From an uncultured delta proteobacterium (GTDB taxonomy: Bacteria > Desulfobacterota > Binatia > UBA9968): a stretch of 64,000 nucleotides of DNA. Every line of letters begins with the position of its first letter. The first letter of the stretch is position 1. The translations under genes and the position numbers were made by a program. This document shows, piece after piece, positions 12,838-32,015 of the stretch. Location: the NCBI GenBank assembly GCA_963840855.1, contig CAWJBB010000068.1:32001-96000 (forward strand). The letters run 5' to 3'. Below the pieces are notes generated by a model. That model was not told the DNA's origin. It searched no databases and was given only the letters and a program-made list of their open reading frames with translations.

Positions 12838-14181
12838 ATGCCCAACAAAATTTTGATCGTTGACGACGAGCCGTTTAACCTCGATCTCCTCGAACAGGAG
12901 CTCACGGAACTCGGCTATGCCATCGAGCGAGCGAGCAACGGCGCCGAGGCTCTGCAACTCGTTGACAAGAATAGCCCAGATCTGGTTCTGCTCGATTACC
13001 AGATGCCCGACATGAACGGCATCGAGGTGCTACGCGCCATTCGCCAGGACAACGGCGATCTACCGGTGGTGATCATTACCGCGCACGGCAGTATCGAACG
13101 CGCGGTGGAGGCCGTCAAAGCCCGCGCCGACGACTTCATTACCAAGCCCTTCGATCCCGAGCATCTGGCCTTGGTGGTAAAAAAATGTTTGGAGCGCGCC
13201 CAGCTCAAATCCGACGTCGAGTTCTTCGCTCAAGAACTCGGTGGCCGCAGCCGCCTGATCTCCGGAAACAGCGCGGCGATGCTGCGAATCGTCGCGGAGG
13301 CGAAAAAGGCCGCCACCAGCAAATCCACGGTTCTACTGCTCGGTGAAAGCGGCACCGGCAAGGAACTCTTCGCCAGATCAATGCATGAATGGAGCGAGCG
13401 CAGATTGAAGCCCTTCGTCGCCATCAACTGCGCCGGTCTGGCCAAAGAGCTGCTGGAGAGCGAGTTGTTCGGGCATGAGAAAGGCGCTTTCACGGGAGCT
13501 CATCAATTGAAAAAAGGCAAGCTGGAGCTGGCGCATGGCGGCACGGCGTTTCTCGACGAGATTGGCGAGCTCGCGCTGGAGTTGCAAACCAAGCTCCTGC
13601 GTTTCCTTCAAGAACGAGAATTTGAGCGGGTCGGCGGAACGGCGCCCATCGAGGTGGATTTGCGCATCATCGCCGCTACCAATAGCGATCTTGAAGCGGC
13701 GGTTAAAGCCGGGACGTTCCGCCACGATCTCTTTCATCGCCTCAACGTCATCGCGCTCACCCTCCCGCCGCTGCGCGAAAGAAAAGAGGATATTCCGGCT
13801 CTGGCAGATTATTTCCTGCAGAGATTTTCTTTGGAGACAAAAAAACACTTCGCGGCGATTGCCGACGCCGCGCAGGAGAAACTCCTGGCTTACGGCTGGC
13901 CCGGCAACGTCCGCGAGCTCGCAAACGTCATTGAACGGGCGGTCGTCTTGGGCGATGGGCCGCAGTTAACGCTGCATCACCTCCCCGCCCGTGTGGTCGG
14001 CGCACAACCGGTCGGCGCTATGAATCAGTCGTCGTTCCATGACGCCATCAATAGCTACCGGCGCGAGCTGATCGTCCGCGCGCTCGCCGACGCTCAAGGG
14101 AACCGCGCCGCCGCCGCCAAAGCGCTCGGCCTGCACCGCACCCATCTGATGAAACTGCTCAAAGCGCTTCAGATAACTTAG
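12838..14181 (+). CDS. Sigma54-dependent response regulator (REC-AAA+-HTH, NtrC family)
   Basis: REC domain, GESGTGKE, ESELFGHEKGAFTGA, WPGNVREL and Fis-type HTH. Confidence 0.95.
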   Translation: MPNKILIVDDEPFNLDLLEQELTELGYAIERASNGAEALQLVDKNSPDLVLLDYQMPDMNGIEVLRAIRQDNGDLPVVIITAHGSIERAVEAVKARADDFITKPFDPEHLALVVKKCLERAQLKSDVEFFAQELGGRSRLISGNSAAMLRIVAEAKKAATSKSTVLLLGESGTGKELFARSMHEWSERRLKPFVAINCAGLAKELLESELFGHEKGAFTGAHQLKKGKLELAHGGTAFLDEIGELALELQTKLLRFLQEREFERVGGTAPIEVDLRIIAATNSDLEAAVKAGTFRHDLFHRLNVIALTLPPLRERKEDIPALADYFLQRFSLETKKHFAAIADAAQEKLLAYGWPGNVRELANVIERAVVLGDGPQLTLHHLPARVVGAQPVGAMNQSSFHDAINSYRRELIVRALADAQGNRAAAAKALGLHRTHLMKLLKALQIT

Positions 14182-14201
14182 AAGAAGTCGAGGAGTGCAG
14201 G

Positions 14202-14240
14202 TGTCGCACTCTTGCTACAGGGTGTATCAAATCGACTACA
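14202..14240. promoter_or_regulatory. Tandem enhancer-like sites (two TGT-N12-ACA, 21 bp apart)
   Basis: TGTCGCACTCTTGCTACA at 14202-14219 and TGTATCAAATCGACTACA at 14223-14240. Confidence 0.6.
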
Positions 14241-14338
14241 CTAACCGCGGCCTAGGGCCAATAACCTCGCTGACTGCCGCTGGCAATTGTTTAAGGAATT
14301 CAATGGCTTATTTCACAAACTGGGATATATCTAGCGTC

Positions 14339-14354
14339 TGGTATAGGTCTTGCG
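14339..14354 (+). promoter_or_regulatory. Sigma54 -24/-12 promoter
   Basis: TGGTATAGGTCTTGCG has GG-N10-GC spacing; near-IHF ATTCAATGGCTTA at 14298-14310 upstream. Confidence 0.65.
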
Positions 14355-14467
14355 CTGGAAATCAGTTCTGGGTGATTTACGACGATCAACAGGCCCAGCA
14401 CCCCAGGTTCAAATTTTTCGCTGCTGGAACGCACCATGCAGCCATGCCGGAAGGCTACGCAAAATTT

Positions 14468-15443
14468 ATGATTAAGAAGATTTTTTTTATTACCGTCCTT
14501 TCGTTTTACTCGTTCAATTTTTCCGCCACGGCGCAGCCAGCAAAGCCATACCGCATCGGCGTTATTCTTCCCGGCGGACCGCTGCACGAGGCAATCGACG
14601 GGCTCAGGGACGGCCTCAGAGAGCTCGGCCTTGAAGAAGGCAAACAATTTGCACTGACGATTCGGGATACAAAGGGCGACGCCAAGGAGGGCGAAGCGGC
14701 GGCGAAGAATTTTGAGCAAGAGAAGGTGAGTTTGATATACGCGCTCAGCCACCTCTGTCACAACGGCGGCAAAGGGGGCGACTGCGAGTATCCCGATCGT
14801 ATTCGGCGTCGGCAGCGATCCGGTCGCCGGCGGGGTCATGGATAGTATTTGCGAAACCCGGCGGAAGGCTTACGGGCGTCCACTACCTGGTCACGGACCT
14901 TACGGCGAAGCGCCTTGAGATCCTGAAAGAGATTCTTCCGAAGCTCAGCCGCGTGGTGACGTTCTACAATCCGGGAAACCGTGTTGCCACAGAAGGCAGC
15001 TGAGTCGGGACGCGAGGAAGCAAAGCGGCTGGGGCTCAAGTTCATCGAGAGACACGTTCCCTCCGTCGAGGAACTTCGCGAAGGCGCTGCAGGCGCTCAA
15101 GACCGGCGAGGTAGATGCTTATTTCTATACCTCGGACGCGATGGTGACCAGCCAGGCTCAACTGATCATCGACACGGCGAAGGCCAAGAAGTTGGCGACG
15201 ATGTTCCACGAGCAAAGCCTCGTCACCAAGGGAGCCCTTGCCAGCTACGGCCAGAACTTCCATGAAATCGGCCGCGCGTCGGCGAAGTATGTGCAGCGGA
15301 TTCTGAACGGCGCCCATCCCCGTGATCTACGAATGGAGACCATTGAGAATATGGAACTGGCGATCAACCTTCAGACGGCAAAACAGCTGGGACTCACCAT
15401 CCCGCCGCAGGTGCTGGCGCGAGCGAAGAAGGTGATCAAGTAG
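14468..15443 (+). CDS. Orphan ABC-type substrate-binding protein (ABC_sub_bind/DUF534), frameshifted
   Basis: Signal peptide, RIGV…GLRELG, ASYG…YVQRIL.GA.P and INLQTAKQLGLTIPPQVLARAKKVIK across three frames. Confidence 0.85.
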
Positions 15444-15537
15444 GCAAGCGGCGCGAGGCGGCAGGCAACAGGAAGAAATTTTAGATTTTCGATTTTGGAT
15501 TGAGAGGACCAAGTACATGACGAATCGGCCGGATGCG

Positions 15538-15643
15538 AGCAACCAACGAACTTTGAGTTTGTAATCAATCTGAAAACGCCAAACAGATCGGCCTGACGAT
15601 TCCGCCGAATGTGTTGGCGCGAGCGGACAGGGTGATTCGATAG
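15538..15643 (+). pseudogene. Isolated 3'-end fragment of an ABC_sub_bind gene (repeat copy 1)
   Basis: Translates as EQPTNFEFVINLKT/KQIGLTIPPNVLARADRVIR*; contains a 30-bp core at 15584-15613. Confidence 0.8.
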
Positions 15644-15704
15644 GCGTGAGGCGAAAGGCGTGAGAGGCAAGGAGATGCCAAGACGACTGAGTTCCTACTT
15701 CGGA

Positions 15705-16118
15705 TTAAGGGATTATCTCGAAGGCTCGATTCCGATTCATTCGATACGTGGAAAAGCCGCGGCGATCCAGCGTGAAAATCCAGTTTGTTCCCAACTCTTC
15801 GCCCAACACAACCAAGGTGGCGTCGGCAAAATCCATTGGGACATTGCGATATCTCTCCATCAGAGCCGTAACCCGCTGCAAGCTTTTCGCCGAGGACGGA
15901 ACCAAGTGAAAAGCGCCTCTGAGAACAAACTCAAGGCAAACTTTCTGCGCGCGCCACTGGGGTCCGACCAAATAGAGCGTTTCGGTCAACACGGCTTCAG
16001 TGGTGACGACAGGGCCGGTCCAGTTCTCCAACGCCGCTACGCAGTCACCGTGCAGCTTCTCGTCCCGATCCACGAGCGCCACGAAAGCCCCGGTATCCAA
16101 CAACAGTTCATCTTCCAC
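15705..16118 (-). CDS. vapC: PIN-domain toxin (VapC family)
   Basis: LLDTG…VLTE…MDFADA…FTLDRRGF. Confidence 0.9.
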   Translation of the reverse strand: MEDELLLDTGAFVALVDRDEKLHGDCVAALENWTGPVVTTEAVLTETLYLVGPQWRAQKVCLEFVLRGAFHLVPSSAKSLQRVTALMERYRNVPMDFADATLVVLGEELGTNWIFTLDRRGFSTYRMNRNRAFEIIP

Positions 16119-16357
16119 GGCGCAATCGATGGATCAGATAGTCGCGGTGGCGTTGCCCGAGATCGGAGCGGCCGCTGGCAATACTTGCCGAGCAAATCGC
16201 GCACACGCTCGATGGGGCGCACTTCCGGCTGGGTGTCCAGATATTGCTCCAAAGCCTCGCGCACCACTTCTGAACGCTTGCGCTTCAAGCGCTTGGCCGA
16301 CCGCTCGAGCTTTGCGGCTAAGTCCGCGGGCAGGCGCATGCTCAATTGCCGTTCCAT
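16108..16357 (-). CDS. Ribbon-helix-helix antitoxin (CopG/VapB-like), frameshift near 16185
   Basis: SMRLPADLAAKLERSAKRLKRKRSEVVREALEQYL; corrected frame ends SGRSDLGQRHRDYLIHRLRRGR* overlapping the toxin start. Confidence 0.85.
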
Positions 16358-16431
16358 ATGCTTTGCCTCCTAGTGCAATACAATGTAATGCAAAGTGGTA
16401 CAAAAGTCCATTCGTACCGAGTAGTCTGGAA

Positions 16432-16500
16432 CAGATCGGCCTGACGATTCCGCCGAATGTGCTGGTGAGGGCGGATAGGGTGATTCGAATAGGCGTGAGG
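16432..16500 (+). repeat. Second copy of the ABC_sub_bind 3'-end repeat
   Basis: CAGATCGGCCTGACGATTCCGCCGAATGTG is identical to 15584-15613 and 17536-17565; also shares GGGTGATTCGA(A)TAGGCGTGAGG with copy 1. Confidence 0.85.
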
Positions 16501-16572
16501 CACGAGGCGGATAGGCGAGAGGAAGAATTCGGATTGAAGCAGAAAATCATGGTTAGGAAATCATGATGCGAT

Positions 16573-17595
16573 TTGCACATCTTTTCCGCAGAATCTAAAA
16601 GCGGCAATCCAAAATCTAAAATGGGTGGCGATCTTCGCTATCGTCTCTCAGTCGCCATCGGTGGGGTGGCGGCCACGGCGCAGGAGCCGGCGAAGGTCTG
16701 GCGGATCGGTGTGCTGGTCTCAAGCTCTGCATCCTTGAATGCGTCCCGTGACGAAGCTCTCCGGCAAGGCTTACGCGAGATGGGTTATGTGGAGGGCAAG
16801 AACATCATCATGGAGTTCCGCTATGCCGACGGTAAACTGGATCGTCTTTCTGAGCTGGCCGCCGATCTGGTTCGCTCCAGGCCCGACCTTATCCTTGTCG
16901 GCGGCACCAGGGTGGCTGTTGCCGCCAAGCAAGCAACCGGCACAATCCCGATCGTCGTGGCGGGGGCCGGCGATCTTGTTGCGGCCGGAGTGGTTGACAA
17001 CCTCAACCGTCCCGGCGGCAACGTCACCGGGGTGTCCAGGCTTTCCCCGGAAATTCTCGGCACGCGAGTGGAGCTGCTCAAAGAAGTCATTCCAAAGGCC
17101 ACGCGCATAGCAACCCTCTTGAATCCTGAAAACCCTGGAAACGCGTCCAGTTTGAGAGAGATCGAGCTTGATGCGCTGGCGTGGGGAATGAGGCTCCAAG
17201 TGCTTGCTGCCCGCAGTCCCGATGACCTGGCAAGCGCCTTCAGAGCTGCGGTCAAGGAAAATTGCAGCGCTCTCATTGTCATGGTCGATGCCCTCTTCAG
17301 TAGCAACCGATCATCGATTGTCGAATTGGCGGTTAAGCATCGCCTGCCCGCGATCTATGACAGAGCCGAGTTTGCCGACGCTGGCGGACTGATTAGCTAT
17401 GGGATGAACTTGGCCGATCTGTCCCGGCGCGCCGCTTGGTATGTGGATCAGATTATAAAAGGCGCCAAGCCCGAGAAGTTGCCGCTAACGGAGCCGGCCA
17501 AGTTCGAGCTGATTATCAACCTCGAAGCCGCGAAGCAGATCGGCCTGACGATTCCGCCGAATGTGCTGGCAAGAGCAGACCGAGTGATCAGATGA
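16573..17595 (+). CDS. Orphan ABC-type substrate-binding protein (ABC_sub_bind); start uncertain
   Basis: RIGVL, GLREMGYVEGKNI, RPGGNVTG, GGLISYG and KQIGLTIPPNVLARADRVIR. Confidence 0.9.
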   Translation: MHIFSAESKSGNPKSKMGGDLRYRLSVAIGGVAATAQEPAKVWRIGVLVSSSASLNASRDEALRQGLREMGYVEGKNIIMEFRYADGKLDRLSELAADLVRSRPDLILVGGTRVAVAAKQATGTIPIVVAGAGDLVAAGVVDNLNRPGGNVTGVSRLSPEILGTRVELLKEVIPKATRIATLLNPENPGNASSLREIELDALAWGMRLQVLAARSPDDLASAFRAAVKENCSALIVMVDALFSSNRSSIVELAVKHRLPAIYDRAEFADAGGLISYGMNLADLSRRAAWYVDQIIKGAKPEKLPLTEPAKFELIINLEAAKQIGLTIPPNVLARADRVIR

Positions 17596-17744
17596 TTGCA
17601 AAATCTAAAATCGGGGCGGGCGATAGCTGATTCGGCCGGGATAAGACTAAAGGTTGGAGTCGACAAGCAATTGTGGATGTAGAGAGTATCGTGTAAGAGT
17701 CGAGAACCGGAACCGATGAAGATTGAAAAGGGATAAGCGCGTCA

Positions 17745-20162
17745 TTGGGAATTTGGAGAAGTGAGCGAAAATTGAAATTTCGCGAATTACCCCTGATAAG
17801 ATTGTTTACCGGGCGCCAGCGGGCCCGTTTGATGCGCGACTATTTTCTTATCTCCGTGCTGCTGGTGGGCGGCGGGCTGACCGCCAGCGGACTGATCGAG
17901 ATCTACTTCCGTTATCAGGAGAGCCAACAGCATTTGGCTCATTTGCAGCGGGAAATCGCCGCCGGCGCGGCCGTCAAAATCGAACGTTTCGTGCAAGAGA
18001 TCCACAACACTCTTAAAGGAGCGACGCGGAGCCGGGAGATCGCGCCGAAGGGTCTAACCACGGAATTTCGCTTTGAGCTGGAAAAACTCCTGCTGATCGC
18101 GCCGGCAATAACGGAAGCTCTCGCGCTCAATCAGTCGGGCGCGATCCAAGTCCAGGCATCGCGGTTACGCACAGTGCTTCCCGAAATCAAGAAAGATCTT
18201 GCGATCTCGCCGGCGTTCCTCCACGCCAAACAAGGCAAATCTTTTTTCGGAACCGTTTACTTCGTGCGCGGCTCCGAACCTTACATGACCATCGCCGTGC
18301 CCATCGAGCGTTTCGCTGGCGACGTCATCGGCGTACTCCAAGCCGAAGTCAACCTCAAGTACATCGGCGATGTGGTCACCAATCTCACCATCGGCAAAGC
18401 CGGGTATGCCTATGTCATCAGCCGCAGCGGCGAACTCATCGCCCATCCCGATATCAGTCTCGTTCTTCAACGCCGTAACGTTTCCCTGCTCGAGTCCACT
18501 AAGGCGGCATTCAGCGGCAAAAGCGGCATTAGCAGCCAACACGCCCTTGTGACTCCCAACATCCAGGGTAAAAATGTTCTGAGTTCCTCCGCGCTCATCC
18601 CCGGTCTCGACTGGGCGATCATCGTCGATCGGCCGGTGGAAGAGGCGTACGAACCCGTCTATGCATCGATGCTCAGGACTTCGGGCCTGCTCCTAGTCGG
18701 CCTCGGCATGGCGCTGATCGCGAGCTTGTTCCTGGCCCGGCGAGTCGTCCGTCCGGTGCGGATTCTCCGCGAGGGCGTGGAGCGCATCGGCACCGGCGAC
18801 TTGAGTTACCGGCTCGATCTGAAGACCGGCGACGAGATCGAAGTCTTGGCCGACGAATTCAACAAAATGACTTCTCGGCTGCGAGAGTCCTACGCCAACT
18901 TGGAGCACAAGGTCGAAGACCGCACGCGCGAGTTGACGGAATCTTTGGCGCAACAAACGGCGACCAGCGAGATTCTCGGAATCATCGCGAGTTCACCGAC
19001 TGACCTTCAGCCGGTCTTGGATGCTCTGGCTGAAAGCGCCGCGAGACTATGCGATGCCAATAGCGCGCAAATTTATCGCGCCGACGGAAATACCCTGAGA
19101 CTGGCGGCCTACCATGGATCACTTCCGGCAACTGAAGAGATTCCGATTGTCCGAAGCTCGGTCGCGGGCCGCGTGTTTCTCGACCGTCGAACCATTCATA
19201 TTGAAGATCTGGCAGCAGAAGTCGAAACCGAATTTCCCGCCGCCAAGCAGGCGCAAGAACGCTTCGGGTATCGAACTTTGCTCGCCACACCGTTGTTGCG
19301 TGAAGGAATTGCCCTGGGTGTCATAGGGATCCGCCGAACCGAGGTGCGTCCTTTCACAGATAAACAAACAGCTCTGCTAAAAACTTTCGCCGACCAGGCG
19401 GTGATTGCCATTGAAAACGTTCGCCTGTTCCAAGAACTGGGCGAAAAAAACGAACAGCTGGAAGTCGCCAGCAAACACAAGTCGCAATTTCTCGCCAACG
19501 TCAGCCACGAGCTGCGCACGCCGCTCAATTCGATTATCGGTTTCACCAGGATCGTCCTGCGCCGGTCCGAAGGAAAGATCGACGTTTTGCAGAAAGAAAA
19601 TCTGCAAAAAGTTTTGATCAGCGCCGAGCATCTGCTCAACCTGATCAACGGTTTGCTCGACCTGGCCAAAATCGAAGCCGGGCGCATGGAAATCTACGCC
19701 GAGACATTCAAGCTGGAAGAAATCGTCCGCATCGCCACTGCAACGGTCGAACCCATGCTGAGAAACGGTAACGTGCGCTTGGTCACTGAAATTGCCGCCG
19801 ATCTACCCCTGATCAAAACCGACCGCGACAAGCTCAAACAGGTGGTCCTCAATCTGCTCAGCAACTCGGCGAAATTTACCGAGAAAGGCGAGATCAAAGT
19901 CGCCGCGTGGACAGTGAATGGGTCGATGAAGCTTGCGGTGTCGGACACCGGCATCGGCATGAACCACGACGCAATCAATTATATATTCGAAGAATTTCGC
20001 CAGGTCGATATGTCGACGACGCGCAAATACGGCGGCACGGGACTCGGCCTGGCCATCGTCAAACGGCTCACGAATCTGCTCGGCGGCGACATTGCTGTCG
20101 AGAGCGAAGAAGGAAAAGGGACGAAGTTCACCGTGACACTGCCGATGGAACTGAAAAGTTAG
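17745..20162 (+). CDS. Sensor histidine kinase (Cache-HAMP-GAF-HisKA-HATPase)
   Basis: Two TMs flanking a Cache domain, GDEIEVLADEFN HAMP, TFADQAVIAIEN GAF, SHELRTPL and GTGLGL. Confidence 0.95.
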   Translation: MGIWRSERKLKFRELPLIRLFTGRQRARLMRDYFLISVLLVGGGLTASGLIEIYFRYQESQQHLAHLQREIAAGAAVKIERFVQEIHNTLKGATRSREIAPKGLTTEFRFELEKLLLIAPAITEALALNQSGAIQVQASRLRTVLPEIKKDLAISPAFLHAKQGKSFFGTVYFVRGSEPYMTIAVPIERFAGDVIGVLQAEVNLKYIGDVVTNLTIGKAGYAYVISRSGELIAHPDISLVLQRRNVSLLESTKAAFSGKSGISSQHALVTPNIQGKNVLSSSALIPGLDWAIIVDRPVEEAYEPVYASMLRTSGLLLVGLGMALIASLFLARRVVRPVRILREGVERIGTGDLSYRLDLKTGDEIEVLADEFNKMTSRLRESYANLEHKVEDRTRELTESLAQQTATSEILGIIASSPTDLQPVLDALAESAARLCDANSAQIYRADGNTLRLAAYHGSLPATEEIPIVRSSVAGRVFLDRRTIHIEDLAAEVETEFPAAKQAQERFGYRTLLATPLLREGIALGVIGIRRTEVRPFTDKQTALLKTFADQAVIAIENVRLFQELGEKNEQLEVASKHKSQFLANVSHELRTPLNSIIGFTRIVLRRSEGKIDVLQKENLQKVLISAEHLLNLINGLLDLAKIEAGRMEIYAETFKLEEIVRIATATVEPMLRNGNVRLVTEIAADLPLIKTDRDKLKQVVLNLLSNSAKFTEKGEIKVAAWTVNGSMKLAVSDTGIGMNHDAINYIFEEFRQVDMSTTRKYGGTGLGLAIVKRLTNLLGGDIAVESEEGKGTKFTVTLPMELKS

Positions 20163-31986: not shown

Positions 31987-32015
31987 ATTATCGCTGCTCA
32001 TCCCTAAACTGTCAA
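31987..32015 (-). promoter_or_regulatory. Sigma70-type promoter for the TPR-barrel gene
   Basis: Minus strand TTGACA-N17-GATAAT. Confidence 0.5.

Follow-up and report, generated by a model that had tools for sequence, protein, structure and literature searches.

The vapBC toxin-antitoxin pair described here lies in a 64,000-nt stretch of DNA (hereafter the window; positions 32,001 to 96,000 of contig CAWJBB010000068.1) from an uncultured delta proteobacterium of the Binatia, between two of three exact copies of the 30-mer CAGATCGGCCTGACGATTCCGCCGAATGTG. The repeats around vapBC are the C-terminal ends of genes for substrate-binding proteins (SBPs) of the PF04392 family (ABC_sub_bind), and the 30-mer is the DNA consensus of the family's C-terminal motif QIGLTIPPNV, not a local repeat. 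The pair is probably an addiction module that was lodged anciently in a decaying, recombining array of SBP paralogues, with flanks that are relic gene ends carrying the family consensus. A previous interpretation made from the letters of the window (the sequence-only reading) had taken the SBP tail to double as a recombination or integration site in an array reminiscent of integron cassettes. None of the refuting conditions named with that reading applied: the 30-mer proved to be widespread, the codons of the tail were found to be conserved and the gene order was reproduced in other data. The proposal that the 30-mer is an integron-like crossover or integration site did not hold. The window belongs to contig C68 (119.7 kb) of genome G000 (7.1 Mb, 93 contigs, completeness 94%, contamination 8.27%). 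The features of the locus, assigned from open reading frames (ORFs), Pfam matches and alignments and given in window coordinates, are as follows.

12838-14181: gene for a sigma-54 response regulator, which opens the array (ORF and Pfam).
14440-15443, + strand: SBP1, a PF04392 gene with frameshifts and the first after the regulator (the split ORFs 14195-14845 and 15141-15443 both match PF04392).
15477-15505, no strand assigned: GATTTT/AAAATC-rich spacer motif, lying behind the stop of SBP1 (matches of 25-28 nt on five further contigs; also seen behind SBP genes and in other places).
15506-15643, + strand: orphan SBP tail 1, 5'-truncated, about 35-45 codons, with 30-mer copy 1 and the stop TAG at 15641-15643.
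15641-15675, + strand: class B spacer (GGCGTGAG repeats) behind the tail 1 stop.
15705-16118, - strand: vapC, gene for a PIN-domain toxin of 137 aa, with an open frame (Pfam PF01850).
16115-16357, - strand: RHH (CopG-type) antitoxin gene (Pfam RHH_1; 3' limit inferred from the related locus L032).
16358-16429, - strand: predicted promoter/operator region of vapBC, with the palindrome TGCAATACAATGTAATGCA (16374-16392) and a TGGAC box.
16430-16492, + strand: orphan SBP tail 2, the last 20 codons with 30-mer copy 2, then a class B spacer.
16573-17595, + strand: SBP3, an intact PF04392 gene (Pfam E 5.7e-57) with a 340-aa ORF, likely start ATG 16621, and 30-mer copy 3.
17745-20162, + strand: gene for a HAMP-GAF histidine kinase, which closes the array (ORF; context).

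The identity of the repeats as SBP gene ends was established by several searches. An exact search of the window placed the 30-mer at 15584-15613, 16432-16461 and 17536-17565, all on the + strand, in agreement with the three positions (15584, 16432 and 17536) listed by the sequence-only reading; no further match with up to three mismatches was present in the window, and none of 100 shuffles gave any match. ORFs and Pfam matches bear out the assignment of copies 1 and 2 to orphan SBP tails around an inverted RHH-VapC module and of copy 3 to the real end of an SBP gene, where it is read in frame as QIGLTIPPNV near the end of the SBP3 ORF. The two tails are 95% and 90% identical by tblastn to residues 318-339 and 321-340 of SBP3, and nhmmer with a nucleotide model of the last 50 SBP codons matched tail 1 at model positions 46-149 (E 8.8e-25) and tail 2 at positions 92-149 (E 1.7e-11). 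Tail 1 lacks one base just 5' of the 30-mer, near 15577-15579, and its 5' limit, which lies before 15538, was judged by eye from the alignment; in tail 2 an extra A near 16488 throws the former stop TAG out of frame. The tails are 87% alike over 91 nt, with an identical core of 32 nt, and the best genomic match of tail 1 is an SBP tail on contig C50 (83% over 144 nt). That the identity is one of DNA was also upheld, the tails of other paralogues in the window (near 15385 and 21626) being more than three letters away from the 30-mer. Tails 1 and 2 do have the post-stop TAGGCGTGAGG in common, as had been reported. This adds nothing specific, because the spacer type recurs after SBP genes in G000; about nine further TAGGCGTGAG-type starts were counted among 87 SBP-downstream stretches of the genome.

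The 30-mer is not confined to this locus. G000 contains 6 exact copies, 16 with at most one mismatch, 31 with at most two, 43 with at most three and 76 with at most six, and three of the six exact copies lie within 2 kb of window sequence. A tblastn search with three window SBPs located 98 SBP gene ends in G000, and the nucleotide tail model gave 123 matches at E up to 1, 115 of them at E<0.05; we class 29 of these as orphan or truncated tails and the others, about 86, as ends still joined to a gene body. Among 41 related genomes, G000 included, 15 carry the 30-mer with at most two mismatches (14 of 24 in the same family and none of 16 in the order's two other families). Five other genomes have exact copies, namely G015, G024, G013, G019 and G009, of which G015 and G009 are unpublished.

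Codon usage in the tail was compared with that in the rest of the gene among 53 single-piece full-length paralogues, which became 52 after one 67-aa fragment was dropped; frameshifted copies were excluded. Within the ten codons of the 30-mer, codon identity at identical residues was 0.574 against 0.336 expected from family codon usage (ratio 1.70), as compared with 0.417 observed and 0.330 expected in the SBP body (ratio 1.26), so that synonymous conservation is higher in the tail than in the body. The 30-mer ranks 7th among 298 ten-codon windows, and four of the six windows ranked higher overlap it; no P value is attached to these figures because pairs of paralogues are not independent. The codon preference is position-specific and alike in the 52 G000 paralogues and in 65 tails of other genomes: ATC encodes the first Ile in 44/50 and 45/54 cases, respectively, ATT the second Ile in 35/47 and 42/59, and in both sets ACG is preferred for Thr and CCG for both Pro. 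Mean pairwise DNA identity is 75% in the tail and 55% in the body, making the tail the most conserved part of the SBP gene. For annotators this is a caution that exact repeats around a cargo gene can be a family consensus and not att sites.

The context of vapBC was compared among relatives in a set of ten loci and a set of 21 named loci; these sets partly overlap, and their counts are not additive. The titles of the related named loci are those of Candidatus Binatia or 'Deltaproteobacteria' metagenome-assembled genomes. In relatives vapBC is 74-80% identical at the nucleotide level and VapC 76-88% at the amino acid level (72-91% in the 21 named loci). PF04392 sequence stands beside the pair in 16 of the 21 named loci with VapC at least 72% identical, and in none of five loci in which VapC is 51-60% identical; wherever SBP sequence is present, in either set, vapBC is inverted relative to it. 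The upstream repeat copy, an orphan in G000, is part of a full-length SBP gene before vapC in G007, G019 (where it is frameshifted), G021, G029 and G006. At locus L046, regulator (69% aa identity), SBP and vapBC follow one another as at the upstream end of the window array, and at G029/L036 vapBC is followed by the kinase (64% aa identity) as at its downstream end. G015, which belongs to another genus and was separately assembled, has the same order of tail, vapBC, tail and SBP. By this comparison of gene order, vapBC is an old and largely syntenic resident of an SBP array that runs from regulator to kinase. Because distant relatives have the pair in this array too, in most cases with a full-length SBP before it, the flanking tails are best read as relics of neighboring genes.

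The two junctions of the pair behave differently among these genomes. The sequence between tail 1 and vapC varies, and the junction on the RHH side is kept: a short tail remnant with a common junction lies beside the RHH promoter in G000, G007, G015, G019 and G016, a longer one (about 45-70 codons) is found in G006, G008, L032 and L051, and G021 and G029 have none at this place. The 30-mer in the tail-2 remnant of other genomes has 4-5 or more changes, from which it follows that orphans do decay. The short form of tail 2 can probably be derived from the long form by deletion between AAGATC (in DKIL) and CAGATC (in KQIG), as judged from the aligned remnants. Every context keeps a unit of about 720 nt, which opens with the TGGAC box some 65 nt upstream of the RHH start and closes some 20 nt beyond the vapC stop.

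The array itself was compared with that of G002, which is of the same genus as G000 and the nearest usable relative for this purpose. Between an orthologous regulator (93% aa identity) and kinase (89% aa identity), G002 has eight SBP genes or fragments and G000 two genes and two stubs; no vapBC is present in the G002 array. SBP1, recovered by tblastn in pieces at C68:46498-47440, has an intact counterpart of 331 aa in G002, and SBP3 is 87% identical to its counterpart at the nucleotide level from 16676 on. In G002, both orphan tails of the window are matched best, at only 77-79%, by the end of the gene preceding the SBP3 counterpart. The array turns over fast by whole-gene gain and loss. The signal-peptide region of SBP3 (16573-16675) has no DNA match to the G002 counterpart, and a related metagenome contig has 205 other letters there; SBP3 seems to have had its 5' end exchanged. 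The G002 array (L021, G002:C206 6086-7875) also contains an inverted PemK-family toxin gene, which has a small ORF upstream and an orphan tail of 68 codons after it, as well as an MNT-HEPN ORF (Polbeta and NTase_sub_bind in one frame). No relative of the G002 MazF-like toxin was detected in G000 by tblastn at 1e-3, so there is no case for one cargo moving between the two genomes.

The pair between the tails is an ordinary one. VapC matches the PIN family (PF01850, E 2.2e-12, 48.1 bits against a cut-off of 23.6), and the antitoxin ORF, which starts at 16357 on the - strand, matches RHH_1 (E 6.3e-08). Judged from its domains and gene order, the pair is classified as a type II vapBC, with a PIN toxin gene and an RHH antitoxin gene directly upstream. 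It has in common with systems of that type (RHH antitoxin and PIN RNase) the two domains, the antitoxin-first order, the overlap with the toxin gene in relatives, the upstream palindrome and the unit of about 720 nt; it differs only in the broken antitoxin frame of the G000 assembly, and the module itself is nothing unusual. The palindrome and the TGGAC box are kept in all loci compared, whatever the context beyond, and the palindrome is predicted to be the antitoxin operator. vapBC is single-copy in G000 at the DNA level. The frame of the antitoxin is shifted after about 57 codons by one extra base at about 16185, an insertion relative to 10 of 10 aligned relatives; the intact antitoxin of locus L032 has 82 aa and overlaps the vapC start. 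In contigs of public soil and permafrost metagenome data sets, the base is absent from all that cover the position (1/1 in run X1, 1/1 in X4 and 2/2 in X6). Three further one-base insertions, at 14748, 14847 and 14993 in SBP1, are likewise missing from all covering contigs. All four lie outside homopolymer runs, the regulator and kinase nearby are intact, and the insertions are either strain-specific decay or consensus errors.

On the reading that we prefer, a short tandem PF04392 array bounded by the genes for a sigma-54 response regulator and for a sensor kinase would be decaying, and the RHH-VapC pair would have become lodged in it long ago in the opposite orientation. Tail 1 would be the 5'-truncated end of an SBP gene whose body was lost, and tail 2 the last 20 codons of an SBP gene disrupted by vapBC, the remnant having been shortened by the deletion between similar words proposed above. 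Homogenization between neighboring tails probably adds to the identity of the 30-mers, and no dedicated recombination site or enzyme would be involved. The antitoxin is expected to repress its own promoter at the palindrome and to neutralize the PIN RNase. Deletion of the pair, for example by recombination of the direct repeats 848 bp apart, would leave the stable toxin behind, and the segment would for that reason be retained, as in the Vibrio superintegron; by this analogy vapBC may stabilize the array. SBP arrays would collect selfish genes because they are redundant and recombination-prone. According to a preprint (bioRxiv 10.1101/2023.11.17.567518), toxin-antitoxin cassettes stabilize the Vibrio cholerae superintegron, where, as here, addiction modules sit in a loss-prone repeat array with a proposed retention role. 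The present array differs in that its repeats are SBP genes, no integrase stands beside it, no hairpin is formed and the modules are convergent with the preceding genes. The locus itself is ordinary, a toxin-antitoxin pair among pseudogene stubs.

Several observations weigh against this reading. From per-site frequencies multiplied together, the exact consensus is estimated at about 0.004 per tail, or about 0.5 copies expected in 115 tails, and six are seen. Three exact 30-mers within 2 kb, two of them in non-coding relics with decayed flanks, are not predicted by the consensus alone, which accordingly explains why such sequences exist and not fully why three stand together; a local DNA-level process (gene conversion or recent common origin) is likely to be needed for the cluster. 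If the antitoxin frameshift is real, the addiction function would be lost in G000. SBP sequence is absent beside vapBC in five of the 21 named loci (L037, L047, L048, L050 and L052, of which L037 and L052 represent one context) and in one locus of the set of ten (L020, from G012), and the occurrence of the unit in several unrelated contexts indicates that the pair has moved at times. Finally, the enrichment of toxin genes at SBP ends described below, together with their convergent orientation (9/10 in two genomes), could reflect targeting and not tolerance or retention.

The sequence-only reading draws partial support from two wider findings, the group II intron insertions described further on and the association of toxin and nuclease genes with SBP ends elsewhere in G000. 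Of its 36 PIN, PemK and Uma2 matches, seven lie within 210 nt of an SBP tail, an approximately 8-fold enrichment (random placement put a mean of 0.86 near tails, and 0 of 2000 trials reached seven); six of the seven are inverted, and several SBP genes adjoining such modules are frameshifted. G021, with 21 PF04392 matches, was used as the second genome, and G029 was left out, its 26 PF04392 genes being too few; in G021, three of 18 PIN or PemK matches are located 166-231 nt past an SBP gene, all of them inverted. An orphan tail accompanies only three of the seven tail-adjacent genes in G000. The 29 orphan tails of G000 begin at scattered positions, from about 14 to more than 200 codons before the stop, with no single breakpoint. 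At least six 'mini-tails' that follow complete tails begin inside the 30-mer (GGCGATTCCGCC...). Repeated breakage at the 30-mer was rejected as their source: at least six have one junction, GGTAGGCGATTCC after an AAAATC spacer, and the mini-tails are therefore copies of one old duplication, apparently of about 105 nt, that has been carried along with the SBP genes.

These associations could possibly, though we think it well short of an even prospect, reflect capture of the pair through homology: SBP tails with their spacer repeats would form a landing pad at about 100 sites for DNA consisting of a tail and a small gene, and no dedicated recombinase would act. Entry might take place by single crossover of a circle or by homology-facilitated illegitimate recombination, which would restore the resident gene, displace an orphan tail beyond the cargo and so give units of repeat, cargo and repeat, and the same traffic might homogenize the tail. 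In favor of such capture, the arrangement of intact SBP, inverted cargo and orphan tail recurs with vapBC (G007, G019 and G006), with a DUF3303 gene (C50) and with PemK (G002), and a Uma2 nuclease gene on C81 lies between orphan tails with no intact SBP nearby. A 703-nt unit made up of part of a spacer, the DUF3303 gene, a 42-codon tail and part of a spacer is present twice at 93.5% identity, once within an SBP array and once outside. The enrichment of toxin genes at tails and the excess of exact 30-mers point the same way, as does the DNA conservation of the tail, which makes it the sole part of the SBP gene with enough homology between paralogues. Against capture, the position of the window pair is syntenic over two families of the order and needs no recent event. 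Repeated entry of circles predicts two constant junctions, but the stretch between tail 1 and vapC is variable and only the RHH side is constant. Four of the seven tail-adjacent toxin or nuclease genes in G000 are without an orphan tail, tails 1 and 2 are only 87% alike, and the metagenome contigs contained no long-sided joint of a circle or empty site.

A wider form of the same idea, which we regard as unlikely, would make Binatia PF04392 3' ends and spacers a genome-wide, homology-based and recombinase-free landing pad for vapBC, mazEF-like, MNT-HEPN, Uma2 and DUF3303 genes. Genes would be captured, duplicated and moved among about a hundred sites, gene conversion would freeze the tail codons and a group II intron would home there, so that the whole would function like an integron array with gene ends in place of attC sites. 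A group II intron (Rfam RF02005, 179.8 bits; RF00029, 42.4 bits) is indeed inserted in three SBP tails, where it separates the final sense codon from the TGA, at about C10 3098-3751 (L031 1099-1732, - strand), C27 169648-170315 and C87 46736-48617. As in group II intron retrohoming, the conserved SBP tail in G000 can thus be a mobile-element target; the intron differs from the present case in lying outside the window, leaving the 30-mer unused and carrying no vapBC. What is less ordinary than the locus is a family of about a hundred copies with codon-constant ends across genera, enrichment of toxin and defense genes in two genomes and use as an intron homing target. Were this to hold across Binatia, it would illustrate how selfish genes can travel over a scaffold formed by a large paralogue family, and how redundant arrays may be shielded from deletion by addiction modules. 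A literature search found no publication joining Binatia or Binatota with the PF04392 substrate-binding-protein family.

It is very improbable that the layout arose by misjoining of paralogous tails from different loci or strains in a metagenome-assembled genome. The contamination estimate noted above, the four one-base insertions within 14.7-16.2 kb that related contigs lack and the very many contigs of other organisms drawn by the tails would fit such an artefact. Against it, an 1858-nt contig from another run (X4, record 19) bridges 15611-16484 and 16676-17462 and thereby carries vapC, RHH, tail 2 and the SBP3 body in order; the stretch 16485-16675 is replaced in it by 205 unrelated-looking positions' worth of other letters. 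The layout is therefore not an artefact of the G000 assembly alone; the misassembly that the sequence-only reading had named as a possible refutation is countered by contigs of other data sets with the same gene order, and the independently assembled G015 has it in another genus.

Least credible of all is a dedicated integron-like system in which a recombinase encoded elsewhere cuts the 30-mer or tail as its att-like site and circular cassettes are swapped, since orphan-tail boundaries are scattered, the cargo is inverted with its own promoter, the tails fold no better than shuffles and C68 encodes no tyrosine recombinase. The synonymous-site conservation of the tail would suit such a system, as would the presence in G000 of 21 tyrosine-recombinase (PF00589) matches and, at C1:45987-46880, of one true integron integrase (TIGR02249, 442 bits; cut-off 265); toxin-antitoxin genes are moreover typical cargo of chromosomal integrons according to the same preprint (bioRxiv 10.1101/2023.11.17.567518). 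A co-occurring recombinase had been suggested as a check, and the tyrosine-recombinase search of the 119.7-kb contig returned none. Six DNA folds (three tails, both strands) had z values from -1.64 to +0.52, with 14 to 136 of 200 shuffles folding as well, and Rfam gave no match at E up to 1 in 14000-18000. No attC-type cassette array is visible beside the C1 integrase, whose neighbors are large ordinary genes. Between the repeats of the window there are only the two toxin-antitoxin ORFs and no recombinase gene of an integrative element. vapBC is inverted to SBP genes and has its own promoter/operator in every context, unlike promoterless cassettes of one orientation. These results, with the synteny of vapBC and the cargoes that lack orphan tails, do not sustain the proposed series of repeat, cargo and repeat arising through the 30-mer.

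The integrase at C1 stands in a row with three further tyrosine-recombinase genes (C1:42601-47012). A link between it and SBP tails was considered and rejected, the SBP gene 7 kb away having the look of a normal-operon member. The search for 848-bp circles or empty sites in the metagenome contigs, also suggested by the sequence-only reading, yielded no reliable joint. Joints of 15501/15502 to 16591/16592 (skipping 1089-1090 nt) occurred in one contig each in four runs and were rejected, having sides of only 18-25 nt and lying at AAAATC-rich spacers in opposite orientation; joints that go back from about 16475 to about 15477 were rejected as circles, since they carry extra letters. Both kinds fit SBP tail-plus-spacer junctions of other organisms.

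Two other known arrangements resemble the locus in part. In C-terminal displacement of Rhs and CDI proteins, orphan 3' gene pieces gather downstream of an intact gene by recombination in its conserved part. The leftover 3' pieces with a conserved stretch are alike; there, the displaced part is a variable toxin tip with an immunity gene, whereas here it is a conserved SBP end and the inserted genes are unrelated. Genomic islands that enter a gene at its 3' end leave this end duplicated (attL/attR), and the succession of intact gene, cargo and orphan 3' end in several relatives is similar. The present case differs in its 850-nt unit, the lack of an integrase, an orphan length that varies by cargo and an upstream copy that in the window is itself an orphan.

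The spacers after SBP stops in G000 fall into three recurrent types: a palindromic element (class A), the GGCGTGAG repeat of tails 1 and 2 (class B) and the AAAATC type (class C). AAAATC/GATTTT-rich motifs were observed in the window at 15477-15505, 16592-16625 and 17600-17615, in G000 on C6 (three places), C81 and C32, and at L015 (G021). The class A element is about 100 nt long (left arm CCAGGATTGAACTGAATTCTCC, right arm TTCAGTTCAATCC) and has 57 copies in G000, none of them at the window's three tails; 35 of the 57 lie within 80 nt after an SBP stop (e.g., C69:59280 and C50:66458). It contains a 14-bp perfect stem and the boxes ATTGAAC/GTTCAAT, each one letter off the attC consensus, a likeness that is only loose; the element might serve as a terminator, as a REP-like repeat or as a substrate for recombination. 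Ends of the group II intron were also seen away from SBP tails, a 3' end at C50:159569 and a 5' end at C30:167571.

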